Positions 28,301 through 62,665 of a stretch of 64,000 nt of DNA are shown one piece after another. Below the pieces are notes generated by a model. That model was not told the origin of the DNA and did not search any database. It worked only from the letters and a program-made list of their open reading frames with translations. The stretch is from Botryllus schlosseri. Taxonomy: Eukaryota. Location of the stretch: the NCBI GenBank assembly GCA_051294905.1, contig CM119372.1:5706001-5770000 (forward strand), read 5' to 3'. Both the position numbers and the translations under genes were made by a program. Within the stretch, counting starts at the first letter, position 1, and each line of letters opens with the position of its first letter.

Positions 28301-31300
28301 GTGACAGATTCATGCTTGAATTTAAAACAAAATTAATTTTAAAACAAACATGTCTAAAGCATCGAACTTTTTGAAACATGCATTTTATTTTTGTTTTTTC
28401 TTAATTTCTTTTTTTCCTTTACGTCACGAATATGGAGTTATGACTTGGCAGCGGATTTTCATTTTTCCTTGGCTTCTAATGAATTGCAACTAAAAATCTA
28501 GGGAAATGTCGGAAAAATTTGACTATGAAATTAAACCGACTTGTGTAGAAGGCCAAGAGCTGATGTTGGAACATCTTTTATGCTCAACCCATATTGTCGT
28601 AACAACTTTTCTGCATGTGTCACAAATTGGATATACAATATAATCCGCATACCCTAGACTTGGGAATGCCCGTAATACCTACAAAAGATCGGTTATTTTG
28701 CAAGAAATTCGGCAATTATTACACCCGTTGAACCTCGGCAACGTTTTTTTTTATCTGAAGGCCGGATTCAAAATTAATTATTTTCCGCGTATCGGTCTTC
28801 AAAATCCACCAACATTTGCATTGAAAATTGATTGCAGCTCATAGACTTATTGTGTCACTAAATGGTGCCCAGTAAGGCATTAGCATTTTTTTAAAATAAA
28901 GTAAATAACTGGATTTCTTGTCGATTTTCGTCAGTAACCTTGACTATTATCAAAATGATATAGGAACTTTTCACTGACCAGTACGGAAATCTGCATGAAC
29001 CGTCACGTGTCCGCGGATCACTGTGGTGCGATTGCGACCAAAATTTTCACCCATCGCGGCTCATATTTTGAGAAGCATTGGAGTAATGTAAAGTGAATTT
29101 CCCAGATTTCATCTTTTCATCCCTCGAGGACTCGTACGAAGCATGCAGCGAACCAATTCTATATCAAAATCCATCCATTAATATATATATTGACCTTATA
29201 GCAAGAAACCAAGATTGACTGATCATTTTAACATTTTCGCCCCTTATCTCATCATTGGTACAATCGCCCGGTCGTATTTTCAGTCCCTGTCTCTTGAAAC
29301 TGACCCAGGAGTCAATATCGCTAACTCCGAGAGCCAACGGTTTAGAGCAGTGGCTCCCAAACTTTTTGGTATCGGAGCCGCATTTCAAATTTCAGAGTAG
29401 GCTACGATTGGAGTCGCACAATACATGAAAGCACGTACCAACGAATAGCAACACCAACAAGAAAAAATACACAAATCCATTTAATGTCCAACTTGACATT
29501 GGCTTTGTGCTTCAAGGAGTGAATCAAAGCGAGGCGTAATTGCAGAGAATGCAGTACGCAGTGGCTGCTTAAGGTGGTTATCGGTCAATCGATTGCGATA
29601 AAGATTTTTGATTCTGACCATTTTGCTAAAAAGGGCTCCATATATATAAGTTGATCACAATAGAGAATCGATTTTCTGGGCATTGGTTATCAAGTTGAAA
29701 TATTTTCCCTCTGGAACTTCACTCTTAATTGCTTAAGCTCGATATCTGACTGCATGTCTAGCAACTCGAGGTGAAAATTACTAGGGGCAGTAGCCACATT
29801 AACTAGAATAGTATCTGAAAACATTTTCATCATGGACAAACAAGCATCCATTCCGTCAATGCGGCGGTTGAACTCATCAATAAAGTTGCTGATAAGCCTG
29901 TTGCATGCATCAAATGATACATTGGTTTGATGGTCAGATACCGTTGAAAATATGTATTGTAATACCACCTGCACTTGAGTCTGGTGGTGAGCTGACTTAA
30001 ATTTGATTGCCGATCCGAACGCATTTGAGTGTGAGTATACTTTTTGGCTTGAGTAGAGTAGCGAAATCGTTGCTAAGTATAGAGAGTCACTACTCGACAG
30101 CACAGAAATTGGTCTCTGCCCGTAATTATCAACTCCAGACACCAAGCCTTGTAAGAGTAATTTTTGTACATGAATTTTATTTATTTTTTGTTATAAATTG
30201 ATTTTGTAGTGTTTTTGTGGGATTTTCAAACGTCAGTGGGAGCCGCAAGAGGGCTAGCTGGGAGCCGCGGTGGGGAATCACTGGTTTAGAGTCTAATTAA
30301 CAGTGTTGGGATCAAGTCACTACCTTCGAGTCACGAGTCACTTCGAGTCATTGCCCATTTTGACTCGAGTCAATTCAAGTCAATCGATTTTCAAAGGTGA
30401 CTCGAGTCAAGTCAAGTCACTCGATTTTTGGAGGTGACTCAAGTCAAGTCGAGTCAAGTCAAGTCAAGTCACGTGTCAAGTCACAATTCAAGTGAAGTTG
30501 CCTTTTCGAAGCATAGGGCATGATAACTTCATTGCATTTTGCAAGCTGTCTGAAATAAGAATTGAGTGGTCATTGATTTTGTACCGATGAACGAATATGG
30601 AGTTAAATATACATGCAAGAAGGCGCTGTATCGCTCACATATACGTAGAACTGCTAGACCACAGTCCATAGTTACCAGCCAGAATAGAGAATAGAGAAAC
30701 GAATTGACAAGATGCAATACATTACCCATTTACAAATCGATATGGTACAATTCTAGCCTGTGCCAATGGTTGAGGACTATATAAACTATATTTGATTTCA
30801 ATTTCAATAAAACAAGAGGCTTGGTTAAGGTAAAAACAGAGATTAATCACTTTACTATATACCAGTTTACGGCAAGGTAAGCCGTAAGCTTCGATCACTT
30901 CGTTTGCGGTCAATTTATTTGTGACGGAACAATGGAGGATCAGTAAAACACACGGTCATTAAATGATTGGTCGCGCTCACGGTTACACCAGCGCTTCGCG
31001 AACAATCCGAACATCTGCAAGATTCAGTGATTTTTATCGGCACCGATTACTAAATGACTTGAAATTGACTCGTGAATTCTGCTCCGAGTCACGAGTCAAT
31101 CCACATTTCTGATACGCCGAGTCAAGTCAAGTCAAGTCATTTTAGCAAAGTGACTCGAGTCAAGTCAAGTCATTCGAAAAAGGTGACTCGAGTCCGACTC
31201 GAGTCAAGTCATGACTCGAATCATCCCAACACTGCTAATTAATAGAAAAGGGTCCAATTTAATACATTCTTAGTTTGAAAAAAAAATCTCTTAAATATTT

Positions 31301-34300
31301 GGCGGAGCGGCAGTAAAGTTACCACGGTCCGGCGGTTAAGAACAATTTAATTAAATTAAAAGCGGTAGAAGAGAGGGACTGCACGGAATCACCCACAAAA
31401 TAAGTACCCCGACGCATATGTCATGATATTTCCGCGCCAAGACTGGATGTTACGGCGGTGGATCGAAAGCTCATCTACAGCAGTGTGTATTAATGCAGGG
31501 GGCGTGCCTGAACTGCGGCCCGCAAAATCCGCGGCCTATTGATTTGAACCTTTTGTGCAACTTAACTATTAAACTGCATTAAATGTGCTGCGTAGTAGCC
31601 TCCTGGACGTAGAAAATGGCATCAGATGTATGCAGAGGTGGTCAGTAACGAAGTACTTCTACTTTTTCGAAGTACTCAAGTAGTTTTCCTCTACTTCTGG
31701 TACTTACTCAAGTAGATCTTATTTTTGCTAATTCTACTTCTACTTCTTAATATTTTGTGATCTACTTACTTACTTCTCGCTATTTTCAGTTTGTCAAGTA
31801 GAAGTAGTTCAATCTTTTAATCAGAAAGATGGCCTGAGGAATTTCGGAGCTGTTTTCACGGAGTATAGACATTTAATTTCCAGAAAAGTTTATTAAAGCC
31901 GGAAATTTTCGTCGCGCCTCGCGCGCAGTGGATACGAAGTGACCAGTATGATTTCACGAAAGTATCGATGAATACAATTTAGGTGGAGGGTTGGCGTGGT
32001 TCCGTTTACACCACATTGTCGCCCTTCGCCCATATGAAATAATTCATCACAGTATATATGGCTCATCATAACTAGGGCTGGGCAAAATCGAGTACCTGAG
32101 TGATTCGATTCTGAATCACGTAAAATGCTTCGAGTCGAGTCGAGTAATCGAGTATCACTCATTATGACGTCATAGCAGAATATTATTTGTCAAAGTTCAA
32201 ATATGTACCTTTTAAGCGACCACAAAGAATATAATGCCTGTTATCCATCATATTAAGGATACTTTGGTATTTTTTCGACCATACCGATTTCATTGCACTT
32301 GGTGACAATATTGCGGGATGATCATGACTTCGGAAATGTGCTATTTCCAGTAACGTTCATAGCTTTGTACTTCATGTTTCGTATGCTACGATACGGCCAA
32401 TCAAGGTTTCAAGGTTTCAGTGAAATTAGTATAAACTCTTTGATCATTGATCAACTCCTCGTTGATAAATCAACTTTCAGTGGCGAGGAGCGTATAATTT
32501 CAGTACTCGAAAAAATCGTCTTTTACTACTCGACTCGAATCATTAAAATTAATACTCGATTCAGATTCGAGTACTCGAATCATTGTGCCCAGCCCTAATC
32601 ATAACGTTTGAAACTGATGTTTCGCAATCTAGCATTTTCTTTTCATATCGTAATCTAGCATGTCCATGGCGTGTCCTAATCTGGAAGAGTGGACTTTGAC
32701 TTTTTCAGTTTTAGAGCTGTTTTAGCGTACCACCATTGAAACTTTTTGGACTAAAAACATGAAATATATATTCTGCTTTTAGAAGTAGTATTTATACTTC
32801 ACTTTCAATTCCCAGTATCATATATTTGAGTTATAATTAATATCAGTTCTTATGTCTGGATAACATACATGTTGATTGTTGAAGTATAAAAGCAAGTGTA
32901 GTAATGCCTTTAATTTCTGGAAATAAAGCTACACAATATGGCATTTTTACGGTCCGCCATATTTTTTATTAACGTTTACTAATCGCGCAAAGTGTTTACA
33001 CCTATACAACTTGTCCGTATTGCTCTTCGACTAAACTACGGCCCTTATTATATGGGGGATGGTGCCATACCATGCTATTTTCCAAAACGTGCTGTTCGAG
33101 AAAACAGAGGACCACAACCACGAGCAGCCACGTTTTCAAATCATTATGTCAGTACAACGCTGTGATCTCTAGCATGGGCGACGGATATATTGAGCATAAA
33201 CAAATTAATATTTTAATAAAGAAATACAAATGCAACAAAAATATAATGATAATTACTTGGATTCAATTTCGAAATAAGAGCTGCACACGATAGCCTATAG
33301 CACTTCCACATTCAAGCGACTAAAGAATCGATATTGGGACTAGCCGAGACACTACATTTCCCCTTAAAGATTTAGTTTGTGGGGAAGTGTCAAGTCGTTT
33401 TCTGTAAGCGCCTCGGTTTTGGCAGTGTCTGGGCCATTGCACGTGAAGGCTTCATGTCCATTCATATCAGCTCCATGGGATGCTATTATCACCGACGGCG
33501 TATCAGCTAGTGAGGAAAAGTGATGCTGAACACCGGACAAAATCCCATTTTGAAAAACAACATTAGCATTTCCAAATGCTTTATTTAGCGTTCTTACAAA
33601 ATCTCAGTTTACGTCACGGGCCGCAAATTACGACTCTGCGGGCCACCAGTTGTTGACCCCTGCTTTAAACTTTGTTTTAAAGAAAGGTCTTTTTTGAAAA
33701 TCAATATTGTTGTCTATAATGATGTCATATTTGTGTAAATACTTTCCGAAACAACTGTTGTATGAGCCTACATACGATTAACACCTGATATAGCCGACTA
33801 TACGATATGGGATGGTGGGAAACCGCGAAATAGTCCTTCAGCAGCTATAGTACGTAGATATAGATAATGGTACGGAAAGAATGTTTTCATGATAATGACC
33901 GCCAACCGTAAAAATCCTGCATGAGGATGTAATACTGGTTAAAGATATTGTTGGTCCGCATATTGCAGGCGTTGGAAGCCTATTTCCAGGGTTGTAACCA
34001 AGTCACATGGTTCCAATCTCTTTTCTATAGTTTTGCCTCTAATCAAGTCGAGTCATTTTCAATCCACCACTGAGTCGAGTCCGAGTCAAAGTCAAACTCA
34101 ATGAGCAGACGGCCGAGTCCGAGTCCAAGTCATTGTGTTGACTGATCAGTTTCCAGTTAAAATATTGTTAAACCAACTTCTTATAACTCTGTTTGGTGAT
34201 ATCGAATGGCTCGGATTTATAATAGAATAATTTTCCTCGTTTTTAGCAGTTTCTGGTCGCATTTTCAAAATTGGTGAAATCCCAATCGTGTTGTTACTTT

Positions 34301-37300
34301 ACTATTCTTAGAAATTCGAGTCATTACAGCCCAGCCTATTTCGTCAAAGGACCTGTATGTATCCAATCATTGCAATTTCCAATGTCAATCCAATATGACG
34401 TAACATTTGAATATTCGTGTTGTCATTGCTCAGAAGAAGAAAAACACAAGAAAATGAAACAATATAAACATTTTCTAACAAGGGCCTTGTTTTAAACATG
34501 TGTGTTTTTAATTGAATTTTGTTTTAAAGGCAGCTCTACCGAACATGCTATTTTGAATGCTTCGACCGCGTTTATTTCAGACTTTCTTCAAACATGGTGA
34601 TTCTATTTGGCAATTACGTCAGTACGTATTGATTCGCCGCACCTCCTAAATTATATATTATGACATGGAGGCGATTGAAGAGCAACGAATATCCAAGCAG
34701 AACAACTAATTACGTCGCGGGTCGGTTCAAAACAACTGGCTTGTTCGAGTATTTTCTGATCCTAAAAACTCCCAAAGATAAATCGATTGATATAACTTTT
34801 TTAATTTTTTTAGTGATAGAAGGTTTAAAGTCATCAAAACCATAGTGTATACGCTTACATATGTACTGAATTATTTAAACCGTATTATTTTGAAACAGAA
34901 TCATAGGTTATTTCATTGCTATCCAGCACATCAATATCTCATTACAAGTTTCGAATGATTAATTGACATCTGAGCATGGCACACAATGAGAAATGACGGT
35001 TAAGCATTCGTCAATTTAGCATCAGAACGCATGAGCATGATGAGAGCTTGGGGAACATTAGCACGCGACTTCAAAACGTTATTCCTAATCATATTCCTCA
35101 TATTGTCATCATAATAGATCTTCGGTATAATGTAGTCCATGCACTATCCCATTGACGTCCATGTGGACCACAAGAGTATTTTTGTTGTTTTGTTTTTGGT
35201 CTAGAACTAAATAACGTATTTAGACTATTCCCATTCTGAATTCTCCCTGGTCACTATGTGTTCATTTATAAAAAAAAAAGCCTTAAACATTCAAACAAGT
35301 ATTTTACAGAAGATGTTGGATTGCTGTTGGTATTAATTTTATCTGGATGCTGTCATATGTATAATTTACCTTATAGTCATGACTCATGAGCATTTGTCGT
35401 GAGCTAGGCTAAGGATGTGCTCAGGAAAGCTATGAGACATACATGTGTAGTTTAATCTTCAAAATACGCTTCAAACGATGTTCTGGACAACCCGGAGAAT
35501 GATGTGCAGCATCATTTTCCTCTGCTATTCGCATTGGTACCGTGGTGCTCGAATTGCAACGAGCCCGTAATACTAAATTCGAAGAATTAATTCGCATTGT
35601 ATTGCGAATGTTATCAGCAAATTTTCTTCCCTAATGAATGTTTGTAACAGATATCACCTGTCCGGGGAACCCATCCAGCGTCGGTAATAGCGAAATCACA
35701 TCTGGGTGTGATGATGGCAGTCCGTATCAGACAACGTGCGAAATAAACTGCAATGAAGGGTATTATGTGGGAGGAAGTGGAAATGCAGTGTGTGTTGATC
35801 CTACACCAAACAATGACTCTAATGTTCAAGGAGCTTGGGATATCGGATCAACAACTTGCACACGTAGGCTAAGTGTAGACCGCCAAAGCGTAGCAGTTCA
35901 TACAATATATATATACATCTTATTTTGTCCACTTTCGCATATGACCGTTTATTACAGAGATTACGTGTCCTGGGAGCCCAACCAGCATTGATAATAGCGC
36001 AATCACTTATGGGTGTGATGATGGCAGTCCTTATCAGACAACGTGCGAAATAACATGCAATCAAGGCTATTATGTGCGTGGAAGTGGAAATGCAGTGTGT
36101 GTTGATCCTACACCAAACGATGACTCTAATGTTCAAGGAGCTTGGGATATCGGATCAACAACTTGCACACGTAGGCTAAGTGTGGACCGCCAAAGCGTAG
36201 CAGTTCAAACAATATATATAGGCCTATATATACATCTTATATTTTCCACTTTTGCATATGACCGTTTATTACAGAGATTACGTGTCCTGGGAGCCCAACC
36301 AGCATTGATAATAGCGCAATCACTTATGGGTGTGATGATGGCAGTCCTTATCAGACAACGTGCGAAATAACATGCAATGAAGGGTATTATGTGGGAGGAA
36401 GTGGAAACGCAGTGTGTGTTGATTCTACACCAAACGATGACTCTAATGTTCAAGGAGCTTGGGATATCGGATCAACAACTTGCACACGTAGGCTAAGTGT
36501 GGACCGCCAAAGCGTAGCAGTTCATACAATATATATATACATCTCATATTTTCCACTTTTGCATATGACCGTTTATTACAGAAATTACGTGTCCTGGGAG
36601 CCCAACCAGCATCGATAATAGTGCAATCACTTATGGGTGTGATGATGGCAGTCCTTATCAGACAACGTGCGAAATAACATGCAATGAAGGGTATTATGTG
36701 GGAGGAAGTGGAAACGCAGTGTGTGTTGATCCTACACCAAACGATGACTCTAATGTTCAAGGAGCTTGGGATATCGGATCAACAACTTGCACACGTAGGC
36801 TAAGTGTGGACTGCCAAAGCGTAGCAGTTCATACAATATATATCTAGGCCTACATCTTATATTTTCCACTTTTGCATATGACCGTTTATTACAGAAATTA
36901 CGTGTCCTGGGAGCCCAACCAGCATTGATAATAGCGCAATCACTTATGGGTGTGATGATGGCAGTCCTTATCAGACAACGTGCGAAATAACATGCAATCA
37001 AGGCTATTATGTGGGTGGAAGTGGAAATGCAGTGTGTGATGATCCTACACCAAACGATGACTCTAATGACGAAGGAGACTGGGATATCGGATCAACAACT
37101 TGTACGCGTAAGTGAGGACCACCAGAACGTCGTAGTTCGTACAATATATATACATAGGTGGATTTTTTCTCTCTAATTTAGTCATAGTTATACTTTTGAA
37201 ACGGGCGATTATGATTCCAACGAAATCTCACAGTTGACGATTCCCGGCCATAAAGGTATCCGTGGAAATGAAAAAGCCGTAAAAGTCGCACTAAAATCAG

Positions 37301-40300
37301 CCATGATGCCCCTCGTACAAGATGAAACCATCCGGCAAGAACTAACTATGAAGGAAACGAAATGCCTCGTTCCCGAAATCTGTCAAAAGAAGTGAATCGA
37401 CCACTTAAATGTCATTTACGACAACTATCAATGAAAAATATTATCGGAGATGTCAGGGACACGAATCTCATTATTGGTTTCTCACAGACTCAAATTTCCA
37501 TCCTGTTGCAGGAATCGGTACTGGCGACTTTGATTCAGCTTAGTCACTTAGTTGCTCCTGTTATTTCTTGACTCCTTATCCGGGTTATCGGTATAGCGGA
37601 AAGTTATCGATATCCGGGTTGTAACCAAGTCACATGGTTTCGAGTCACGAGTCAATCTGACTTTTGTGGTTTTGACTCGAGTCGAGTCGAGTCATTTTCA
37701 ATTCATCACCGACTCGAGTCCGAGTCCAAGTCACCGTTTTAAGGGTCAAGTCCGAGTCATAGTGTTATGACTCGAGTCGAGTCCAAGTCACAGTATTGAA
37801 GTCATGCTCAACTTATGTTTTCAATCCTGCTTGGGTGATATTGAATTCCTTGCTTGCCAAACATGCTTATTTTGTCCCTATCATAGTCTTGGCACATGTT
37901 TATTTAGGCAGATAACGGACAGTTTCTGGCCTCATTTACCGATGCTACAGATAGACGAGACAGGCCGCCAATACGATAACTTTACTAATCTTAGAACTTT
38001 AAATCAAATATATGTCAGTCTGATATATCACAAATGCAAGCACTCAGTTTTTATTACTAGCACATCGACGACCGCTCACTAATAGCTTATAGAGAATTAA
38101 CGAATTCACGTCTACATACTATCTGATAGAGAACCTACGAATTCGCGTCTAGATACAAGCTGGTAGAGAATCAACGTATAAACGTTTATGTAGAGGTACG
38201 GTTTTGCTTTCACATTAAATCAGGTGGTTGACCAGAAAAATGTCAACTGTCCTGCTCAGCTCCCGAAGTAGTCGCCGGAGCGTTACTTTAGTGCTGATTT
38301 ACTGTTATCTTAGTCGAATTTTCCCTACATTTACCAAAAATTCGCAAAAATGAGGGCAGAATCTTAAAAAGGAGGCTACTTCTTAAAGTTGTTAGAATAT
38401 CTGAAAGAACTTGAATTTGGCTAAATTCCAACCAGTATAAAGCAATGCTAACAGAAAATATTTTGAATTAATTACAAATAGAGACTTTCGAATTTTACCG
38501 GCTACCTCATGATATTGTTAGATTGTGTAGAAGTATGATTCATAGCAAATTTGGCTCAATTCCAATTAGAAGAAGCGAAGTTATTAGAGTGGAACATTTT
38601 GAATATGAAAAAATAGTCGACTTACTACTAGTATGTAATTATATTATATGAAATCATTTCTCACTAAAAATACTCCATGTATTTTCAAATCCAATATTTT
38701 CTCCTCTCATATCATTGATTCCACTATTTAAAATTAAGCCAGATTCAGTGTTCTTTTTATGCAACGTAACAATTTTATCAAGTAGCCACCATGTAGAATA
38801 AAAAAGAAGTTATTTTTGATCGGCCCTATTGTACAAACATCACACAACATTAGCCATTCATTATTACTCACGTGCACAATGCACACATCTAACAAAACGT
38901 CAAATGGACGGAGGGTATTGTGTGTTTTCACAGACAGCAGATCAAATCAATGAGTTATACTTGAAAATACTAAAGTGGAATGGAGATTCTCATATATGTT
39001 GAGGCGGCATGGCCTTAGAATAATCCACATCCACTGGATACACGTTCCACTGGTGCATTAGATGCAGGAATTGAAAAGCAATTTTGAACCACACTGAAGA
39101 GCATTAGATACTCATCCATTCTAGTCGCCCAAAATACAAAGAATCATCACCTTCAAATCTACACATGAGCTTATCACTCTCTTCCAAGTAGGCTACTTGA
39201 CCATCTGAGTCATTTCATTGGCTCTAATTGGACTTTGCTTCGATTGTTTGCTTGTATAATTGAAAAGTCTTGAGTACTATTACCTCTTCACCACGGGATT
39301 ATTTTGTACAATGCATTGCTATTTGCCAGTGTTGGGATCAAGTCACTACCTTCGAGTCACGAGTCATCTCGAGTCATTGCAGATTTTGACTCGAGTCAAG
39401 TCAAGTCAATCGATTTTCGAAAGTGACTCGAGTCGAGTCAAGTAACTCATTTTTTGGAGGTGACTCGAGTCAAGTCGAGTCAAGTCAAGTCAAGTCACGA
39501 GTCAAGTCACAATTCAAGTCAAGTCAAGTCAAATTGAATTTTTGAAGTATGAGTGATGATTCAAAGTCATTACATTTTGCTAGCTGTGGGAAAAACATAT
39601 TAATTGATCATTTATCTCGAATCAAATAACGAATATCTAGTTAACTATACATGCAAAAAGACGTTGTATCCCTCACGTACACGTAGAACTGCTAATGAAA
39701 TACGCGTGAGTAACTGTACAGCTCCATGCTACAGTTAGTTATTATCAACCAATATATAGGACCTAATACGAAGCTTTGAGAAGTTGAAACAAATTGATAT
39801 GATACAATAGCCTACACTACCCAATACCCATCTACACATCCGTGAGAATATAAACGCACAAACTAGATTTGTTCGATTTAAATCATACAAGAGGGTTGGT
39901 AAATGTGAGCACTGCGCAACGTAGGCCTAAGCGTTTAGCCGTCAAAGAAACAGAGACACATTGATATTTAGATTAATCTTCTATTACTACTACGACAGCG
40001 TAAGCTGTGATCGTTTAGTTTGCGGTCAATTTATTTGTGATCTAACAATGGAGGATTAGTGTAACGTACAATCACTGAATGATTGGTTGCTGTTCATACG
40101 AGTGACACCAGCGTATCTCGAACAATCCGAACATACACAAGATACGGTGATTTATTCGACACCGTTTACTTGGTGACTTGAAATTGACTCGCAAATTTTG
40201 CTCCGAGTCACGAGTCAATGCACATTTTTGAAGCTCCGAGTCAAGTCAAGTCAAGTCATTTTTCCAAAGTGACTCGAGTCAAGTCAAGTCATACGAAAAA

Positions 40301-43300
40301 GTTGACTCGAGTCTGACTCGAGTCAAGTCATGACTCGAGTCATCCCAACACTGCTATTTGCTACTATGTACCATTGTCTTTTGTTTTTACGGCGGCATAT
40401 CTGATATCATACGAGTGCAACGAAAGCAGTGGTGACAAAGAGCGATGTCGACAGAATTCGTCACATGCGTTGATCTAACTAACCATTGTATTTCTCAAAT
40501 TTCTTCACCTTCAAATCATATAAAATAAGCCGAGTCAATGACTTGAGTCGAGTCATGCGTAATGACTGGAGTACAAGTCGAGTCAATCCAAATATTGACT
40601 CGAGTCGAGTCATTTTCCCATTTCAAGAAAATGACTCGAGTCAAGTCGAGTCACAAAAAAATCGTGACTCGAGTCTGACTCGAGTCGAGTCATGACTCGA
40701 GTCATTACAACCCTGTCGATATCTACAAAACGTATCAGAAACAATTTGCCAAGGGCGGTTCTATATCCTGATCGAAAAATGAAGTCGCATTGAATCGCGA
40801 ATGTTATCAGCAAATATTCTTCCGTAATGACCGTATTCAACAGAGATCACCTGTCATGGGAGCCCATCCAGCGTTAGTAATAGCGAAATCAGTCCTGGGT
40901 GCGATGATGGCAGTCCTTATCAGACAACGTGCGAAATAACATGCAATGAAGGATATTATGTGAAGGGAAGTGCAAATGCAGTGTGTGTTGACCCTACACC
41001 AAACGATGATTCTAATGACATAGGAAACTGGGATATCGGATACACAACTTGCACGCGTAAGTATATGAACCTGGAGATTTCTTAGCTTATAGAACACATA
41101 TATATCTTGTATTTACGGAATTTACATATCGCCATTGTCAACAGAGATAACCTCTCCTGGGAGCCCTACTAGCGTCGATAATAGCGCAATCACATCTGGG
41201 TGTGATAATGACATTTCTTATCAGACCACGTGTGGAATAGCTTGCAATCAAGGCTATTATGTAGGAGGAAGTGAAAAGGCTGTGTGTGATGACCCTTCAC
41301 CTTATGTTGGCGACTCTAATGATCAAGGATCTTGGGATATCGGATCAACATATTGCACGCGTAATTTTGGTCCGATGTTGTAATGACTCGAGTCGCGTTT
41401 TTATTTGGGACTAGATCGGTGGTCCGCAACCTTTTTTTTGGAATGATTGCCTCCTTCTCAAGCTCGACAGCAATTTTCGCCCCCAATATTTATTGATCCA
41501 AAAAAGAGGACATATATATATGGGAAATTTATCCATCTATAACTCTGATCGCTGGTGAATTGACTAAAAATAAGGTCATTTTTCCGAGTAGCAGCTCTAA
41601 AAACCGGTTTGCGCATCGATTTTCCGTTTAGGTATGACTAGCATGATTTTTAGACCTAAAAAAGAGGCGGTTTTGACCGAAAAAATCTCAATTTCGACAT
41701 TTTTTGACATTAACAAACTTAATTTTGATAAAGTTTTAACCTCATGAATGTATATTGGGTGTTTTCCCACAGAATGTTAGAACTGTACTACGTATCTTCG
41801 TCTATGGTTGGAACTGTCTGTCCTTACCAAGTAGCTTGGCCTGAAAAGACTTATATGACTTATTTGACAAATCTTCACGTGGACCTATGAAGAATTCCAA
41901 TTTACATCACGCATTAAGGTAGAAAAAATTAAAATTGGTTGTAGTACAACGAAAGACACTTCTACATTCTCCTTTAGAAAGTGTCAGTCCTTACTAAGTA
42001 CTATTACCAGAGGTGGTCAAAGTAGCCGAGAAAGCTACTCAAGTAAAAGTAGAAGTAGCGACAAAAAATCTACTCAAGTACGAGTTGAAGTACTTCTTCC
42101 ATAAGCAACCTAAAACTACTTGAAGTAGAAGTAGAATAGACTGACTTTAAATCTACTTAAGTAAGTAAGTATTTGTGAAAACGATCGTAATTAGTTCACA
42201 TGGACTGTCAAAAGGTGCAAATTGAGCTATGCGAAAGGTGCCTAGCTTGATTGATATTGATCCATATCAGGAGGTATCCAATATTCGACAGCATAAGCAT
42301 TCGTCCGCATCATGGGATGATGAATTATTTAACACGTATTAAAAAAAATATAATCATAGATTATTTCATTGCTAGCCAGCACATAAATATCTCATTACAT
42401 GTTTCTAATGATTAATTGACATCTGAGCATGCCACACAATGAGAAATGGCGGTTAAGCATTCGTCGATTTAGCATAAGAACGTATGCGCATGATGAGAGC
42501 TTGGGAAACATTAGCATGCGACTTCTAAACGTTATCCATATCTGTTCGTCATATAGTCATCATAATCGATCTTCGGTATAATGTAATCCGTGCATTATCC
42601 CAATGAATCCATGTGGACAACACAAGAGTATTTTTGTTGTCTTGATTTTTGGTCACCAACTTAATTACGTATTTAGACTATTCCCATTCTGAATTCTCCC
42701 TGGTCACCATGTGTTCATTTATAAAAAAGAAGGCCTAAAAATTCAAACACGTGTCTTACATAAGATCTTGAAATGCTGTTGATATTAATTTTATTTTAGA
42801 TGCTGTCATATGCGTAATGTAACTTACAGTCACGAGCATTAGTCCATTCTAATATCACATTTGTCGTGTGCTAGGCTAAGGTTGTGCCCAGGAAAGTTGA
42901 ATATAAGACATACATGTATGTTTAGTTCAAACTTCAAAATATACTTCAAACGTTTCGGACAACCCGGAGAATGATGTACCGCATCATTTTTCTCTTCTGT
43001 TCGCATTGGCACCGTGGTGCTCAAATTGCAAAGGGCGGTACTATACTAAAATCGAAACATTAGGTCGCATTAAAGCGCGAATGTTATCAGCAAATATTCT
43101 TTCCTAATGACTGTTTGTAATAGAGATCACCTGTCCGGGGAGCCCATCCAGCGTTGGTAACAGCGAAATCACTTCTGGGTGCGATGATGGCAGTCCTTAT
43201 CAGACAACGTGCGAAATAACATGCAATGAAGGCTATTATGTAGGGGGGAGTGGAAATGCTGTGTGTGATGATCCTACGCCAAACGATGACTCTAATGACG

Positions 43301-46300
43301 AAGGAGACTGGTACATCGGATCCACAACTTGTACGCGTAAGTGGGGACCACAGTAACGTCATATTTCATGCAATATGTATAGTTGACTTTGTTCTCTCTA
43401 GTTTAGAATAAGGATTATGATTACTTTTGAAACGGGCGATTATGATTACAACGAAATCTCACAGTAGACATTTCCCGGCCATAAGGTATCCGTGGAAACA
43501 GTGGCGGCTCGTCCTATCGGGCAACTGGGGCATTGTCCCACCTAAAATTCTGTTCAATAACAATTCCTTACCATTTATAGACGCACACCAATCTATATAT
43601 ACCGAAATCGCAACGAAAGTCGTATTATTCTTGTCCTTTCGCTTGTAAATGCTCATATATAGCGAAGTCTCTGCGAAAATCGAATTCTCTACTGTGTTTT
43701 CGCTTTGCGAATGCCTAGCCGGGGCATGGCGCTCATGACTAGGGCTGGACAAAATCGAGTACCCGAGTGATTCGATTCTGAATCACGTATGTTCCGCTTC
43801 GAGTCAAGTATCCGAGTATCACTCATTATGACGTCACAACAGAATGGACTGTGTCAACGTTTAAATATGTATCTTTTATGCCACTACAGCCAATATAATG
43901 CCTGTAATCCGTCACATTAAAGACACTTTTGTATTTTTTCGACGATACCGATGTCATTGTACTTCTTGGCAATGTTGTGGGATGATCATGACTTCGACAA
44001 TGTGTTGTTTCCAGTAACGTTCGTAGGTTTGTACTATGTCTCGTATGCTGCGACACGGTCGATCCAGGTTTCAAGCCTTCCTCAGTGGAAAATAGTACCA
44101 AAACTATTCTCGTTAGTAAATTACCTTTCAGTTGCGAGGCGCGAATAATTTCAGTACTCGAAAATATAGTCTTGTACTACTCGACTAGAATCATTAAAAT
44201 ACTCGATTCAGATTCGAGTACTCGAATCATTGTGCCCAGCCCAACTCATAACAAGCTTTCACTGTCTATTCTCTCAAAGCCGCGCACAATAAAAAAAAAC
44301 GGTGATTTGCTCTCTCCTATTCATAAAACTACCGAGCAAGCGGGGCACAAAAGCTCTGTGCCCCTGAGGCAGGGGCGCCAACACGCGGCCCGCAAAGTCA
44401 TATTTTGCAGCTCGCGACTTGATTTGAGATTTCGGAAGAGAGCTAACAAAACATTTTGAAATACTGAAATTGACGTGCAATGGTCCAAACACTGCCAAGA
44501 CCGAGACGCTTAGAAAACGGCTTAGGGCAATTGTTCTGAAACTGGGTGGGCGCGAAAGCATCTGATGGCGGCCAGAAACTGCTGTCAACTGAAAAATTTT
44601 TTGCGCACGCCGCGATTTAACTCGGATTCATAGTTATAGCTATTCCTCTGTGTATAATCCGGAATTCATATTATAGAATTCTCTCACCGACAATCGTAAC
44701 CTTCCATGCCATCAAACTATATCCGTTGGGATTGCTAGCATTATGGAAGCATTTTGTGATATGACGATAAGAGGGACGCGAAATTTTTCACTAAAGGTGG
44801 ACATGTCTAAAAAGGATGGAGTACCACTGGCTTATATAGAGTTTCCCAACACGATCAAGCTTTACGTGGAAATGGTCTTTCAGCTAGTAACGTACATGTA
44901 TTGTCCACAGCTCTGAGTTCGAAATAAAACGAAATAGATTGTAGGGGTCCCTTTTTTGCATTTTCATTCCCTAAAATATTCCTTCTTTCGTGGTCACTAT
45001 ACCCATCGCATATGTTAGGAAGCATAGCATGGTACTAATGTAGAGTTTTAAAACGTAGGTACCTACTTTATATCGAAACTGAATGCATGCGGCCTGCGAC
45101 CGCTGCAAAATTTGGAAAGTGGCCCGCGACCAGAGGTGGTCAGTAACGAAGTACTTCTACTTTTTCGAAGTACTCAAGTAGTTTTCCTCTACTTCTGGTA
45201 CTTACTCAAGTAGATCTGATTTTCGCTACTTCTACTTCTACTTCCTAATATTTTGTGATCTACTTACTTACTTGTCGCTATTTTCAGTGTGTCAAGTAGA
45301 AGTAGTCTAATCATCCAATCAGGAAGATAGCCTGAGGAATCTCCGAGCTGTTTTCACGTAGTATTAACATTTAATTTTCATAAAAGTTTAGTAGAGCCCA
45401 GAATTTACGTCGCGCTTCGCGCGCAGTGGATACGGAGTGACCAGTATGATTTCACGAAAGTATCGGTGAATATAATTTAGGTGGTGGGTTGGCGTGGTTC
45501 CGTTCACGCCACATTGTCGCCCTTCGCCCATATGAAATAATTCATCACAGTATATATGGCTCATCATAAGGTTTGAAAGTGATGTTTCGCTATCTAGCAT
45601 TTTCTTGTCATATCGTAATTTAGCATGTCCATGGCGTGTCCTAATCTGGAAGAGTGGACTATTGACTTTTTTTTGGTTTTAGAGCTGTTTTAGCATACCA
45701 CTATTGAAACTTTCTAGACCAAAAACATGAAATACATATTCTACTTTTAGAAGTAGTATCAATATTTCACTTTCTATTCCCAGTATCATATACTTTGAGT
45801 TATAATTAATATCAGTTCTTTTTTCTGGATAACATACATGTTGAAGTATAAAAGCAAGTGCAGTAATGCCTTGTATTTCTGGAAATAAAGCTACGCCATA
45901 TGGCATTTTTACGGTCCACCATATTTTTTAATAACGTTTAGTAATCGCGCAAAGTGTTTACACCGTATCCTATACAACTTCTCCGTATTGCTCATCGACT
46001 AAACTATGGGCCTTATAATATGGGGGATGGCGCCATACCATGCCATTTTCCAAAACGTGCTGTTCGATAAAACAAAGGATTGGCATCCAATTTCGTTATC
46101 ATTACTATCATTTTCATCCCACGAGGTGGGCGAATGCTTATATGCTATCGAAAATTGGATACCTGCTGCTATGCATCAATATGAATGAAGCTATCTATCA
46201 TATAGCTCAATTTGCACCTTTTTATAACCCATCCAATCAGGATCGTTTTCACAACTACTTACTTACTTGAGTACTTTTAAAGTCAGACAACTCTACTTCT

Positions 46301-49300
46301 ACTTCAAGTAGTTTCAGGTTGCTTATGAAAGAAGTACTTCTACTTGTACTTGCGTAGATTTCTTCGACGCTACTTCTACCTCTACTTGAGTAGCTTTCTT
46401 GACTACTTTGACCACCTCTGGATGTATGTCCATATCTATAACACAAGGAAACATTCGGGGGTTTCGGGTTGGATTATGCACTGTACAATTGAAACATGTG
46501 TCGCACGAGATATTGGACGTTTTTGACTCTCTTGACAGGTCGACAAATTGATGTGTGTTGGATTTTGCAGCAACATTCACAGGAAAACTGTGACTTTTCA
46601 ACTTAAACTGAAACAAAATAAAATTGAAAATGGGTACCTAGCGATATTTCCGAGATCACCGACTCACAGCTAGCACCTATAGGATCCCATTGTAAATCGT
46701 AACGTAACCCACAGTAAATAATCCAACTACAGGGTGGCATCAGCGATGAAATTTCCAAAGCTCGACGCCCAGTATCAGCTGGCAATGATTTTAAGTTGTC
46801 GTTGTTTTTGTTGTTGGTGGTTTGATATTCATGGTGTTTCGACTACACTTGTCATTTTACATCAGGCCGATATTCTTTATTATGATTCCGTAATTACCGA
46901 CTTGCAGTTCGAGAACAAGTTGTACCAACCAAGTATTAAAGTTCCGAGACATTTCATCACTCAATTATGTCCTGATATACACATGTAACAAAGTACTGAT
47001 AAATAAGATGTGATCCCGATCGCCAGTGTTGGGGTGACTCAAGTCACCTTTTTCGCATGACTTTACTTGATTCGAGTCACTTTGCTAAAATGACTTCTGG
47101 ACTTGACTCGGCGTATCAGAAATGTGTATTGACTCGTTACTCGGAGCAAAATTCACGAGTCAATTTCAAGTCATCAATTAATCGGTGTCGATAAAAATCA
47201 CTGTATCTTGCATATATTCGGATTGTTCGCGAACGCTGGTGTAACCCGTGAGAGCGACCAATCATTCAATGATCGTGCGTTTTATTGAGCCTCCATTGTT
47301 CTCTCACAAATAAATTGACCACAAACGAAGTGATCGAGGCTTACAGCTTACGTTGTAGTAAACTAGTAGTAAAGTAATATAATAAAAAATTATCTACCTT
47401 AACCAAACCTCTTTTTCATTGATTTTGAATTCGAATGTAGCTTATATACTCCTCAACCATTGGCGCAGGCTTGAACTGTATCATATCTATATATAAATGG
47501 GTGAAGGGTAGCCTAATATATTGCATCTTATCAATTCGTTTCTCTATTCTCTATTTTGGTTGGTAACTATAAACTGAGGCTACGTATATGTGAGCGATGC
47601 AGCGCCAACTTGGGTGTATATTCAACTCTATATTCGTTGATCGGTTCAAAACCAATGACCACTCAATCTTTATTTCAGACAGCTAGTATAATGTATTGAC
47701 TTATTCATGCGTCATACTACGAAAAGGCAACTTGACTTGGATTTTGACTTGACTCGTGACTTGACTTGACTGGACTCGAGTCGCCTCCAAAAATCGAGTG
47801 ACTTGGCTTGACTCAAGCCACCTCCGAAAACCGATTGACTTGACACGAGTCAAAATGTACAATGACTCGAAATGACTCGTGACTCGAAGGTAGTAACTTG
47901 ATCCCAACACTGCCGATCGCCTTGATTGGGTAAATATCAACTAAACTTGTTATCGTTTAATTAACCTGCGTAATAACTCATCTAGGTGACAAAATAAAGT
48001 TGTTTTAAGCGACATATGGGCGCGATCAATTCGAATCAACTGAGTCTAACTATAACCGAGGGCTACTATATTTTTGTGTCATAAATTCCGGACGCTCGTT
48101 AGCGCCCATAAGCGGATTTCCAAATACGGTACGAGCATTGTCGATCAATGTGACGTCACGACAGCAAAGCTATGCCTATCGACAAGCGGTGGACACCATT
48201 CGGTTCAGGAGTATGTGTTTGTGTGTTGTAAGTTGTAACGAGAGCTGAAGCCACATTTTCAGCCCCAGCCGCCCATATAAACACTGATCTTGGGCCCACT
48301 GTAGGGTAATCGATGCAACTTCTGGAGTCTTACTGTATGCAGCTGGTTTTTCTAAATGCATCTGGACGGTAATTGATTTGATTGAATTATGTCAATAATA
48401 TTGGGTATTCCATATATTACTATATAATTTTGATTCTCTCTCCGCGCACGTGATCAGAGTTAGTGGTAGAGCTGGTGGAGGATGATGACTTAGAAAATTC
48501 AGGGAGAGTAATTGTACAAGGCACATTGTTAAGTCATGGTAATGTCACATCGATACGATTATTCATCAAGCTAATGCCGGTGCGCAGTGCGCACCACTGA
48601 GGTATATAAACACCCCACATCCGGTGGCTCCCAACCTTATATGGTCACAACTCCATTTCCAATTTGTTCCGTGGCCCAGCTCAGAATTTGATAAGCTGAT
48701 TACTAATAAAAGATCGGCACCTTTTTTCAGACTTAAGCACGGCCTATTTTGGAAGCCGATCACATTCAACATATTTTCGAACCCAAGAACAAAGGCGAAC
48801 AAATCCCAGGGGCAAACAAATTGCAGGTTTCGAACCACAAACTTTCAATAAAGCATGTCAACGGCCTAAACCGACTCTAGGAATATACCGTTCTCCTATA
48901 ATTCCGACTACAATTATACTTATTTCTGTAAATGAAGGTTATTTTGATTTATTTAATTTGATAGCAGTTTTAGTTTTTGCGAGGGTAGTAGTCCCAATAT
49001 TAAAATCAATATATGTGATTCTAAATCGCGCGAAGCGCGAAAAAAAAATGTAGCATAAATCTGTCCACAAAGAATATAGTTTAGGTTGATTTACGAAAAA
49101 AATATGAGCTTACTGCAAACCTTCAAAACTCCGAACATTTGGCCATATTTTAGAAATTCCTCCCGGACGCAATTTTACCAGTGAAGTTCCGGACATGTCC
49201 GGGAAATTCTGGACGTATGGCAACCCTACCATAACCCCAATTTAACCAAGTATAACACCGGGCTGGTATCCTAATAACCTCAAACCCTTGCCCTAATGCT

Positions 49301-49465
49301 AACTGGTTCGTATTCCGTTTAATCAACTGCTAAGTATTTTCTTCCTTCGCAGTGTCTCAAGAAAAGTCATCGTCACTTGGGGGTGGCGCGATTGCCGGAA
49401 TCGTAATCGGAGTGCTCGCCTTCGTCGCACTCTGCGTCGCGGGGTTCTTTCTTCTTCGCAGATAA
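1133..49465 (+). CDS. Gene 1 (5'-incomplete, multi-exon): type-I membrane glycoprotein, Ig - S/T exon - 23 mucin-like exons - 8 Sushi/CCP - TM - RR*
   Basis: 34 intact exons with AG acceptors; all internal exons have GT donors and are phase 1-1, so they join in one open frame ending at TAA 49463-49465. Joining all of them into one transcript is inferred from strand, order and phase. Confidence 0.8.
2330..3207. mobile_element. hAT MITE (TAGGGC TIR family)
   Basis: TIR TAGGGCGATTTTT/AAAAATCGCCCTA, 8-bp TSD GTTATCAC, TTTGACC subterminal repeats. Confidence 0.92.
3236..3325 (+). CDS. Gene 1 exon: 30-aa Ser/Thr-rich linker
   Basis: Pyrimidine tract ttcttttattcacag|, donor G|gtattt, 90 nt, phase 1-1; DVSVITPAAFCASDALSTITTSGGSIDSTT. 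Confidence 0.7.
3847..4436. mobile_element. Foldback MITE with ~220-bp inverted arms
   Basis: CATAGTGTCCTATA...TATAGGACACTATG; arms pair over most of the length. Partial copies near 24530, 27640-27950, 53490-53760 and 58320. Confidence 0.85.
8468..8857. mobile_element. hAT MITE in a mucin-array intron
   Basis: TIR TAGGCTTACCATA/TATGGTAAGCCTA, TSD CTGTTAAT/CTGTTACT. Confidence 0.88.
10092..10983. mobile_element. hAT MITE, inverted copy of 2330-3207
   Basis: TIR TAGGGCAATTTTT/AAAAATTGCCCTA, TSD GTAATTAC. Confidence 0.92.
12275..14222. mobile_element. Charlie-type non-autonomous hAT nested in the 5.4-kb element
   Basis: TIR CAGTGGTTCCCAA/TTGGGAATCACTG, TSD CTCTAGAG; internal part homologous to 26390-27450. 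Confidence 0.9.
15380..15967. mobile_element. hAT MITE (CAGGGTTGTAA family) inside the transposase
   Basis: TIR CAGGGTTGTAA/TTACAACCCTG, TSD AGTGGTTC, GACTCGAGTC arrays. Confidence 0.93.
16356..16565. mobile_element. Right-end fragment of CAGTGTTGGGA-family MITE
   Basis: Ends GTCATCCCAACACTG; matches the ends of 30301-31234 and 39327-40353. Confidence 0.8.
17571..17951. mobile_element. hAT MITE, same family as 8468-8857
   Basis: TIR TAGGGTTACCA/TGGTAACCCTA, TSD ACATATAT. Confidence 0.92.
22607..24442. mobile_element. Non-autonomous hAT element in the intron after the last mucin exon
   Basis: TIR CAGGGGCGGGCAAC/GTTGCCCACCCCTG, TSD CTATACCC; the array intron consensus resumes at 24451. Confidence 0.9.
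23066..23434 (-). pseudogene. Penelope-like GIY-YIG endonuclease fragment
   Basis: SNIIYQYTCRCDSRYVGRTSQRLQQRIRQH...SVIGHHLL. Confidence 0.88.
24652..24800. mobile_element. MITE end with ATTACA subterminal repeats
   Basis: CAGAGTGGGGTCAATTAC followed by repeated ATTACA; partner end not found. Confidence 0.5.
26892..27075. mobile_element. Small MITE
   Basis: TIR CAATGTTCCCTCTAAG/CTTAAAGCGAACATTG, flanks TGACGTG/TGAGGTG, GCGCA repeats. Confidence 0.7.
29348..30283 (-). mobile_element. Charlie/SPIN-type hAT deletion derivative with transposase C-terminal remnant
   Basis: TIR CAGTGGCTCCCAA/GGGGAATCACTG, TSD GTTTAGAG; minus strand HLELLDMQSD and EPFFSKMVRIKNLYRNRLTDNHL (GTF2IRD2-like C-terminus). 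Confidence 0.85.
30301..31234. mobile_element. hAT MITE (CAGTGTTGGGA family)
   Basis: TIR CAGTGTTGGGAT/ATCCCAACACTG, TSD CTAATTAA. Confidence 0.93.
31633..33110. mobile_element. hAT MITE (CAGAGGTGGTCA family), right end missing
   Basis: Colinear with 45131-46075; preceded by GATGTATG. Confidence 0.85.
32073..32597. mobile_element. Nested hAT MITE (TAGGGCTGG family)
   Basis: TIR TAGGGCTGGGCA/TGCCCAGCCCTA, TSD ATCATAAC; empty site near 45565. Confidence 0.92.
33987..34334. mobile_element. hAT MITE (CAGGGTTGTAA family), internally deleted
   Basis: TSD CCTATTTC; homologous to 15380-15967 in inverted orientation. Confidence 0.85.
35651..35863 (+). CDS. Gene 1 exon: Sushi/CCP domain 1 (6-Cys type)
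   Basis: aacag|...C|gtaggc, 213 nt, phase 1-1; ITCPG...GC...TTCEINCNEGYYVGGSGNAVC...GAWDIGSTTC. Confidence 0.9.
35958..36170 (+). CDS. Gene 1 exon: Sushi/CCP domain 2
   Basis: tacag|...C|gtaggc, 213 nt, open frame, same Cys/Trp pattern. Confidence 0.9.
36275..36487 (+). CDS. Gene 1 exon: Sushi/CCP domain 3
   Basis: tacag|...C|gtaggc, 213 nt, near-identical to domain 2. Confidence 0.9.
36582..36794 (+). CDS. Gene 1 exon: Sushi/CCP domain 4
   Basis: tacag|...C|gtaggc, 213 nt, near-identical to domain 3. Confidence 0.9.
36895..37107 (+). CDS. Gene 1 exon: Sushi/CCP domain 5
   Basis: tacag|...C|gtaagt, 213 nt, ends DEGDWDIGSTTCT. Confidence 0.9.
37240..37302 (+). pseudogene. Retroelement RNase H motif remnant
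   Basis: IPGHKGIRGNEKAVKVA matches the PGHxGIxGNExAD motif; partial duplicate near 43470-43497. Confidence 0.55.
37615..40715. mobile_element. 3.1-kb non-autonomous hAT (CAGGGTTGTAA family)
   Basis: TIR CGGGTTGTAA/TTACAACCCTG, TSD TCGATATC. Confidence 0.9.
39327..40353. mobile_element. Nested hAT MITE (CAGTGTTGGGA family)
   Basis: TIRs intact, TSD CTATTTGC; the homologous copy near 59325 lacks the insert. Confidence 0.93.
40844..41056 (+). CDS. Gene 1 exon: Sushi/CCP domain 6
   Basis: aacag|...C|gtaagt, 213 nt; ITCHGSPSS...DIGNWDIGYTTCT. Confidence 0.88.
41145..41360 (+). CDS. Gene 1 exon: Sushi/CCP domain 7 (divergent, first Cys replaced by Ser)
   Basis: aacag|...C|gtaatt, 216 nt, open frame; ITSPG instead of ITCPG. 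Confidence 0.8.
42008..42175. mobile_element. Isolated inverted right end of the CAGAGGTGGTCA MITE
   Basis: Reverse complement of 46255-46420. Confidence 0.8.
43124..43336 (+). CDS. Gene 1 exon: Sushi/CCP domain 8
   Basis: aatag|...C|gtaagt, 213 nt; ends DEGDWYIGSTTCT. Confidence 0.88.
43740..44244. mobile_element. hAT MITE (TAGGGCTGG family) nested in a CAGTGGCGGCTCG element starting at 43499
   Basis: TSD CTCATGAC/CTCATAAC; empty site near 51770. Confidence 0.85.
45131..46420. mobile_element. hAT MITE (CAGAGGTGGTCA family), both TIRs present
   Basis: TIR CAGAGGTGGTCA/TGACCACCTCTG; own flanks do not match (CCCGCGAC vs GATGTATG). Confidence 0.9.
47024..47912. mobile_element. hAT MITE, inverted copy of 30301-31234
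   Basis: TIR CAGTGTTGGG/CCCAACACTG, TSD CCGATCGC. Confidence 0.92.
49353..49465 (+). CDS. Gene 1 last coding exon: transmembrane helix and RR stop
   Basis: ttttcttccttcgcag| phase 1; LSQEKSSSLGGGAIAGIVIGVLAFVALCVAGFFLLRR*. Confidence 0.88.
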
Positions 49466-61460: not shown

Positions 61461-62338
61461 GTAACACGTCGTGTCTATTTATATCTCGAGTCGGCGTATA
61501 TGTCGCAAAAACATCAAGGATAAAATTTACTACGCCCTACTTTCTTTTGCATAACTTCGATTGTAGCCGCTGAGGTATCGGGCTTCTACGTGTTTATTCA
61601 GGGTATAGTGGATTAAGCTGAAAATACAGTTAGGATAATTACTCCATAAAACTATCGAAACCTACGGTCGATTTTGGCGACTTCAAATTAATGCCGTAAC
61701 TCGGCCGCGAAGGAATCATGTACGAGATCTCTAAGTACGATGTACGGCCCGAAAATTTGGAATAACATACCAGTTACGATTCTTCAATGAAGCTAAATAT
61801 TCATTGATGAATTATCTTGTCATTTATTAATCATTTGGTCGAAAGTGGATTATCTTCATTTATGAGACCTGTTCTTATATTTGTCTTACGTGCGCATTCT
61901 GTCTTATATTAAGTGCTCACCGCAGGACACAATAGCCAAACCGACGATATAAAACCAATTGTCCGTTTTTTTGACATCAGTTCCTCAAATTGCGCGGTTA
62001 AAGGCTCCACGCAACCATCAGCACTAATATAGGGGTCAGCCTCAGCACTAACAATAAGATTAAGAACGAGATGAAAATTGCGTCAATACCGTTCATTTGG
62101 AAATATTGCTTTCTGATGTTTTTCCGATGAGACAAAGTACATGAAGATTTGATGCGATAATATCAGAATGAAACTTGTAGATTTACTAACGTCAGTAGTT
62201 TGGTGAGGTTAAGGTCACTTTGTAGAATTTAATCTATCACGAGCATCGCAGAGACCCTCTGTGTTTGTGATAGAAAAAACATGTGCCGAGCTCCCATTCT
62301 CATTGAGATATTGTGATATTTCTTGCAATCGATTTCAG

Positions 62339-62665
62339 ATGTATATATCACGCCGTGTACGACCAACGTTACCGTCAAGATCGGCCAAACTCCCAATTAC
62401 CAGATCGCGTTTTGCCACTCATCTTTCCGCGAACGAGATATGGCTTGGTACGAATTTGGCAAACCCGTCTCTACGGATACGTCGCAGCCATTTTATCAAG
62501 TGTACGACGTGGGTGGTCCGTCAAACAAATCCTACGTTGCATCGCTGGCGATTTCAAATAGACTGGACCCGTCTTTCCGAATACTCGAATGCCGCGGTGT
62601 AAATGACTCGCTGGACGAAGCGCAGGACACCCCGCTCCGTCTGCTCGTGGTAGCTTATGTGGAAG
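62339..62665 (+). CDS. Gene 2 exon: divergent Ig-like domain
   Basis: tttcag|...GAAG|gtacgt, 327 nt, phase 1-1, GC-richer than flanks; AFC...MAWYEFGKPV...ASLAI...LECRG; sequons NVT, NKS, NDS. Confidence 0.8.

Follow-up and report, generated by a model that had tools for sequence, protein, structure and literature searches.

We examined a 64-kb window of contig C2 (C2:5706001-5770000) from a eukaryotic genome assembly of 495.5 Mb in 219 contigs, in which a putative membrane-mucin gene carries an array of Sushi (CCP) exons. "The window" means that whole stretch, which contains no undetermined bases (0 Ns) and has a G+C content of 40.4%. We found that the Sushi exons lie inside a 14.8-kb block (31633-46420) that is bounded on the outside by the ends of two distinct copies of one cut-and-paste transposon family, and that the same 8-bp target-site duplication (TSD), GATGTATG, adjoins both outer ends. 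With a probability of roughly 0.5, we read this block as a composite ('macro') transposon that was moved by its outer ends. That the block was imported at all, by macrotransposition or by a route of repair or recombination, we consider probable, and a history of exon shuffling is plausible.

Outer junctions of the block

The following features define the block (positions are those of the window):

31625-31632, plus strand: left copy of the TSD, GATGTATG, read directly, adjoining the left terminus
31633-31644, plus strand: left terminus of element A, CAGAGGTGGTCA, directly 3' of GATGTATG
31633-33111, plus strand: element A, positions 1-949 (left part) of a hAT-like non-autonomous element of ~1.29 kb, delimited by BLAST against element B
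32073-32597, plus strand: high-copy element nested in A, 525 bp, with termini TAGGGCTGGGCA...TGCCCAGCCCTA
42008-42320, minus strand: fragment C, from a third and older copy, corresponding to its right end (B 984-1290), inverted, 83.5% identical to B
45131-46420, plus strand: element B, complete (1290 bp, left and right termini intact) and oriented like A
46409-46420: right terminus of B, TGACCACCTCTG, directly 5' of GATGTATG
46421-46428, plus strand: right copy of the TSD, GATGTATG, read directly, adjoining the right terminus

Both junctions (31632/31633 and 46420/46421) had been described in the first-pass annotation of this window, and direct reading confirmed them. The 12-mer CAGAGGTGGTCA occurs at four sites in the window (31633, 42008, 45131 and, on the minus strand, 46409-46420), with approximately 0.24 expected by chance. 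A BLAST search of 45131-46420 against the window returned three pieces, A, B and C; the annotation had counted two copies in the block and had overlooked C at 42008-42320. A and B lie in direct orientation relative to each other, with their outer termini intact. A consists of two segments, 31633-32071 (matching B 1-439 at 92.5%) and 32595-33111 (matching B 430-949 at 89.6%), and the element nested between them has its own 8-bp TSD, ATCATAAC, at 32065-32072 and 32598-32605. The annotation was also right that A lacks a right end and that the left flank of B does not match the shared duplication: this flank, CCCGCGAC, differs from GATGTATG at 7 of 8 positions. The outer flank of fragment C is ACTATTAC, and a direct segmental duplication (42321-43381 vs 34867-35913, 83%) begins exactly at its inner end, a layout which fits an old insertion followed by a deletion.

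The family to which these elements belong is large, with 5,409 first-look candidates genome-wide, and all 40 that were scored aligned over about their full length at 87-100% identity. Flanks were collected for a sample of 29 other full-length copies, chosen as the best matches of B. Perfect 8-bp TSDs were present in 24 of these copies, while 4 had one mismatch and 1 had five, and CAGAGGTGGTCA was present at both ends of the family copies examined. Short terminal inverted repeats starting with CAG or TAG are typical of hAT elements, so that the 8-bp TSD and the CAG-type termini together fit a hAT-like non-autonomous element; the earlier label of miniature inverted-repeat transposable element was dropped, as 1.29 kb is long for such an element. 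The hAT superfamily has a target preference of nTnnnnAn, and among the 24 perfect TSDs a T was found at position 2 in 11 and an A at position 7 in 12.

Chance or site preference as a source of the shared flank

We compared 812 non-cognate pairs of left and right flanks from the 29 copies. None of these pairs matched at 7 or 8 of 8 positions and the maximum was 6, which was reached 15 times. From the base frequencies at each position in the 24 perfect TSDs, the chance of a second independent end carrying GATGTATG was calculated by hand to be about 1e-4. No GATGTATG flank was found in the 29 other full copies. Genome-wide, the right terminus followed by GATGTATG had one exact match, at this locus, and 24 matches with no more than one mismatch; GATGTATG followed by the left terminus had 3 exact matches and a further ~45 with the variant terminus CAGAGTTGGTCA. 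All five of the other matches of the latter kind that were sampled (2 exact and 3 of 3 variants) proved to be a different repeat, whose conserved upstream sequence (200 bp or more) does not resemble the flank at 31625. The annotation had named a common GATGTATG flank in this family as grounds for abandoning its reading, and these counts, with none of the 29 copies carrying it and the sampled matches elsewhere assigned to another repeat, show that GATGTATG is not such a flank.

That other repeat family has ~45 copies (sampled on contigs C3, C4, C7, C10 and C15) and contains an internal fossil junction of GATGTATG with CAGAG(T/G)TGGTCA. This junction is an old insertion of a related element that was amplified along with its flank.

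These figures bear on the possibility that the Sushi exons were always in the gene, with the matching flanks arising from a local composite hop, a complex rearrangement or the coincidence of two insertions. We consider such an in-situ history rather improbable. Pure coincidence has, by the hand calculation above, a likelihood of ~1e-4 per pair. It should be noted, however, that 1 of the 29 other copies is also without a TSD, that hAT elements tend to transpose to linked sites, and that this gene family mixes modules freely, as in a paralogue on contig C8 which has CUB and mucin-like exons.

Independent origins of elements A and B

Over 939 aligned columns, A and B share 92.1% identity. Their median identities to the 29 other copies are 93.5% (A) and 92.9% (B), the corresponding value among those copies being 94.2%, and there were no 100-bp windows in which A-B identity was raised. 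Because A and B are no more alike than either is to unrelated copies, and because B has its own site within another repeat (repeat W, below), they are separate insertions and not halves or duplicates of one element. This counts against an in-situ origin by duplication of one element in place, which predicts that A and B are sisters. Unequal crossing-over, a further in-situ route, predicts a second copy, within the block, of the DNA on the right side of B, but that DNA is unique. On paper we also derived the outcomes of tandem duplication, reversed-ends transposition and sister-chromatid transposition and rejected them along with unequal crossing-over, as these predict a duplicated flank or another placement of the TSD, neither of which was observed.

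Fragment C has a median identity of 88.6% to other copies, vs 95.0% among those copies over the same columns. This greater divergence indicates that C is older and unlikely to be the missing right end of A. We had considered C as an inverted right end of A, the breakpoints at 949 and 984 nearly meeting, and rejected it: C has about twice the divergence of A, and un-inverting it still gives no matching TSD.

The severed flank of element B

The original insertion site of B can still be read on its left side:

44368-45130, plus strand: repeat W, an element of ~800 bp whose terminus is of the CAGGGG...CCCCTG type, interrupted by B 23 nt short of its right end
45123-45130, plus strand: CCCGCGAC, the left copy of B's original TSD within W, the right copy being absent

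The 763 bp to the left of B (44368-45130) have four other matches at 81-90%, all of which reach the last base before B. In all 3 of the W copies that were fetched, 23 nt follow CCCGCGAC before the sequences diverge, ending in ...CCCCTG in 2 copies and in ...CCCCTC in 1. To the right of B there is instead GATGTATG followed by unique DNA, in place of CCCGCGAC and the 23-nt W tail. The right end of B was therefore severed from its original flank exactly at the terminus and rejoined elsewhere. Together with the duplicate of GATGTATG outside A, this severance is the expected product of a transposase acting on the left end of A and the right end of B.

No orphan W tail was found in the window, where the sole W end (24020-24054) is continuous with its own W body. 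A donor site within the intron should have kept a W tail beside CCCGCGAC, and since the intron has no orphan tail, a hop within the same intron is unlikely. This is a further difficulty for the view that the Sushi exons were in the gene from the start.

Sushi exons and the recipient gene

The exons concerned are listed below, the Sushi exons being numbered from left to right:

22479-22577, plus strand: final mucin-like (Ser/Thr-rich) exon that is recognisable on the upstream side of the block, 99 nt, phase 1-1, AG/GT
35651-35863, plus strand: Sushi exon E1, 213 nt, phase 1-1, AG/GT
35958-36170, plus strand: Sushi exon E2, phase 1-1, AG/GT
36275-36487, plus strand: Sushi exon E3, phase 1-1, AG/GT
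36582-36794, plus strand: Sushi exon E4, phase 1-1, AG/GT
36895-37107, plus strand: Sushi exon E5, phase 1-1, AG/GT
40844-41056, plus strand: Sushi exon E6, phase 1-1, AG/GT
41145-41360, plus strand: Sushi exon E7, 216 nt, phase 1-1, AG/GT, first cysteine replaced by serine
43124-43336, plus strand: Sushi exon E8, phase 1-1, AG/GT
49353-49465, plus strand: transmembrane (TM) exon, phase-1 acceptor, ending in ...FFLLRR and then a TAA stop

A tblastn search with one Sushi exon found exactly 8 exons in the window, all within 35651-43336, so the annotated position of every Sushi exon between the outer ends holds for 8 of 8. The exons are 213-216 nt each and lie on the strand of the gene. Five of five exons tested against the Pfam Sushi model (PF00084) scored 21.3-25.1 bits (cut-off 20.7), and the other three are 93-99% identical to E4 at the protein level. 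E7 is the most diverged of the eight, with 72% protein identity to E4 and one extra codon. With E7 excluded for that codon, dN/dS (the ratio of nonsynonymous to synonymous substitution rates) was 0.10-0.56 in all 21 pairs among the remaining 7, which indicates that these seven have been working exons. The introns of the older Sushi copies differ by ~12-14%, above the divergence among the transposon copies, so that an array was already present before A and B inserted.

The intron had been annotated as phase 1, and the last mucin-like exon, the eight Sushi exons and the TM exon are indeed all phase 1 with AG/GT splice sites. Given the 1-1 phase of the Sushi exons, their good splice sites and their position on the strand of the gene, the cargo could be spliced in frame and would then be included in the mRNA. 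The raw RNA reads used, ~6% of run X23, provided no coverage of the Sushi or TM exons, which counts neither way. In searches of a protein database of longer proteins only, no match was found with one Sushi exon or with the Ig-like exon as query.

The exon at 1111-1503, which the annotation had called Ig, is weakly Ig-like: Pfam Ig matches exist, but all are below threshold (best Ig_5, 17.9 bits, cut-off 27.3). Pfam gave no match for the whole open reading frame (ORF) that holds this exon, nor for the ORF at 62317-62682. As for the interpretation that had been offered, the composite with one shared TSD and the fit to a phase-1 intron stand, whereas the conversion of an Ig-mucin-TM protein into an Ig-mucin-Sushi-TM protein is plausible.

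Proposed movement of the block

Under macrotransposition, two independent ~1.29-kb copies in direct orientation would have flanked a Sushi array at another locus. One of them, A, would have been, or would have become, a left-end fragment, and the other, B, would have inserted into a W repeat. We infer that the transposase of the family then paired the left terminus of A with the right terminus of B and cut at both. The 14.8-kb unit would have been pasted into GATGTATG in the phase-1 intron between the mucin-like and TM exons, with duplication of the 8 bases. Through in-frame splicing, the product would be an ectodomain in which eight CCP modules separate the mucin stalk from the membrane anchor.

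There are several points which weigh against this reading. A is without its right 341 positions, and macrotransposition requires a separate truncation for this. At positions 2 and 7, GATGTATG carries A and T, where the family more often has T and A, and it is thus unlike nTnnnnAn. No donor locus was found, as the Sushi array with its introns has no second copy in the assembly, and an orphan tail at a donor site would not be distinguishable, the W-tail 31-mer having 1,667 genome matches with no more than 2 mismatches. No empty-site allele or paralogue was found either, and genome-wide 31480-31632 and 46421-46785 match nothing but themselves. Lastly, read mapping at 90% likeness was swamped by repeats, and among the joints listed none supports or contradicts the junctions; a joint of 31632 to 46429 was absent from the 15 listed (a further 2,232 lie outside the list), which counts neither way.

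Searches for a donor locus and an empty site

A genome-wide search for a donor had been proposed with the first-pass annotation. Outside the block it gave one DNA-level match to a Sushi exon, at C4:1794012-1794192 (181 bp, 84% identity). This is a decayed pseudo-exon that has lost cysteines, contains a stop and ends after ~135 nt of the exon, with a reverse-transcriptase-like ORF ~1.2 kb further on. The ~15 kb around it contained the decayed pseudo-exon and one divergent Sushi exon, and no W tail.

This result is relevant to the way in which the block may have been imported, since the exons could have been copied rather than cut and pasted, through repair or recombination at a resident element. 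A resident copy (E0) would have been inserted at GATGTATG and, after a break or excision, strand invasion would have occurred into a second copy (E2) lying in W at a Sushi-bearing locus. Approximately 13 kb leftward of E2 would have been copied and end-joined to E0 at position 949, giving t-E0[1-949]-donor DNA-W-E2/E0 chimera-t, and a double crossover with two donor copies would be similar. One such event would account for the stop of A at 949 and for a complete B with a foreign left and a resident right flank. It also predicts an identical outer TSD, and is compatible with A being unrelated to B[1-949] if the switch point lies at or beyond 949. However, it requires ~13 kb of ectopic synthesis or two crossovers, and chimerism of B has no readout, as A and the right part of B do not overlap. 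The donor should also survive, and in the assembly there is only the 181-bp decayed pseudo-exon on C4 at 84%. We therefore prefer macrotransposition to copying, which we judge unlikely, because copying predicts a surviving donor and the Sushi array has no second copy; a single-copy array fits cut-and-paste rather than copying.

A paralogue with an empty site had also been suggested as a check, and none was found, the immediate flanks being unique in the genome. Flank queries (31236-31632 and 46421-47035) gave only distant matches to 31236-31479 and to a ~100-bp high-copy repeat at 46785-46910, and 31496-31530 matched only itself genome-wide with no more than 3 mismatches, leaving no repeat consensus for the comparison across the joined flanks that the annotation had suggested. 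A sensitive local BLAST of both flanks against all loci fetched from the genome gave no match. An old intragenic duplication of intron DNA relates 4820-6113 to 28135-31479 (~72%) in the window. It was considered as a relative of the left flank and rejected, because similarity breaks off at 6113/31479 and fails to extend into the right flank (local score 22, shuffled maximum 28). At C2:6169143-6172379, 430 kb downstream, there is a 91% match to 4414-7407 of the window, and no match to the block flanks or the Sushi exons was found there. Matches between the block interior and the outside (43499-44369 vs 51526-51889, and 30293-31240, 39319-40368 and 47036-47912) were examined as segmental duplications and set aside as copies of repeat families.

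The paralogue on contig C8 (C8:19975001-19985000 and C8:19984930-19986608) matches the TM exon at 85% and the DNA downstream of it at 73-79%. Upstream of its TM exon are a Thr/Ser-rich exon and one that encodes a CUB domain (Pfam E = 4.3e-11), and the 10 kb examined contained no Sushi exon, so that one membrane anchor is joined to differing ectodomain modules.

We also considered that the block could be an assembly artefact, with a path running through one family copy to a Sushi locus and back via a second copy. A family of more than 5,400 first-look candidates would provide opportunities for this, read mapping did not confirm the junctions, and the unique parts of the block occur once in the assembly, as would also be expected of a chimeric join. 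We nevertheless regard an artefact as very improbable. Family copies differ by 5-8% and are resolvable by long accurate reads, A is a truncated copy with its own nested element and not a generic one, and the contigs are tens of megabases in length (about 24-38 Mb). In addition, contig pieces from two other samples match unique stretches of the Sushi region and of the right flank with 0-2 differences, without spanning the junctions.

Comparison with known systems

Macrotransposition by Ac/Ds elements in maize was reportedly described by Huang and Dooner in 2008. At the White Cap (Wc) locus of maize, a natural hAT macrotransposon, Tam3L, was recognised by a matching 8-bp TSD at its outer junctions (10.1101/082677), and alternative transposition by paired hAT ends is well described (PMC3744419). 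As in the Tam3L and Ac/Ds macrotransposons, the block has two direct hAT elements of the same family, with outer termini that would have been paired and an 8-bp TSD outside them. The maize cargo amounts to tens of kilobases of host DNA (10.1101/082677). The maize cases are ones in which whole genes were moved or new mutants were caught, with donor and target known, unlike here. The present case further differs in being in an animal-type genome, in having one of the two elements as a left-end fragment only, and in its cargo, a symmetric exon array which lies in frame, on the gene's strand and in a phase-compatible intron.

By our derivation, the reversed-ends and sister-chromatid reactions of Ac/Ds would leave both TSD copies at one side of ends that differ in orientation, or would leave them next to a single end, and alternative transposition would duplicate or delete flanking DNA. 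Here one TSD copy lies outside a left end and the other outside a right end, both ends being in standard orientation, and the flanks show no duplication.

Pack-MULEs, CACTA elements and Helitrons capture gene fragments, and abortive gap repair with template switching is one way in which this occurs, as in the copying route considered above. The block resembles such captures in that host exons end up between transposon termini. Those captures are usually short, lie inside one element and are amplified with it, whereas here a 13-kb stretch containing eight intact exons plus introns lies between two separate copies in a single-copy unit. Among the matches listed in the literature searched, no title or opening of an abstract described an exon-carrying macrotransposon. 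The mechanism is a known one; novelty lies in the host, in the in-frame exon array that forms the cargo and in the phase-matched intron where it landed.

Much of the cell-surface repertoire of animals is held to stem from the shuffling of extracellular modules of phase 1-1 (Sushi, Ig, CUB and EGF). To our knowledge, the physical movement of exons between introns has almost never been observed, and shuffling is usually deduced only from the statistics of domain phases. Our tentative proposal, for which we see somewhat less than an even chance, is that macrotransposition in an animal genome put an array of CCP exons with its introns into a phase-matched intron of an unrelated membrane-mucin gene. 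If so, a new multidomain receptor would have been made in one step, and the locus would be a direct molecular record of intron-mediated exon shuffling in which the termini, the 8-bp duplication and the severed flank can still be read. It would also mean that macrotransposition, so far documented in maize, operates in animals and is able to bring in arrays of domains in frame. As the vehicle we propose two ordinary cut-and-paste elements that behave as a single unit and leave a testable footprint. As there are thousands of family copies, and paralogues which pair one TM exon with different modules, the process could be searched for systematically.

Other features of the window

One further repeat has a copy on either side of the block, 431 bp away on the left (30301-31194) and 608 bp away on the right (47036-47912); these two are inverted relative to each other and 83% complementary. 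The block itself contains a third copy at 39319-40368, and read depth suggests that this is a high-copy family.

On the plus strand, 9700-22700 is a tandemly repeated region of mucin-like exons, made up of a long run of Ser/Thr-rich ORFs that are nearly identical (19592-19966, 20158-20532 and 21536-21910 among them). Within it, on the minus strand at 14663-16485, is a remnant of a hAT transposase that shows no link to the CAGAGGTGGTCA termini; its ORF at 14663-15427 matches Dimer_Tnp_hAT (E = 1.4e-7).

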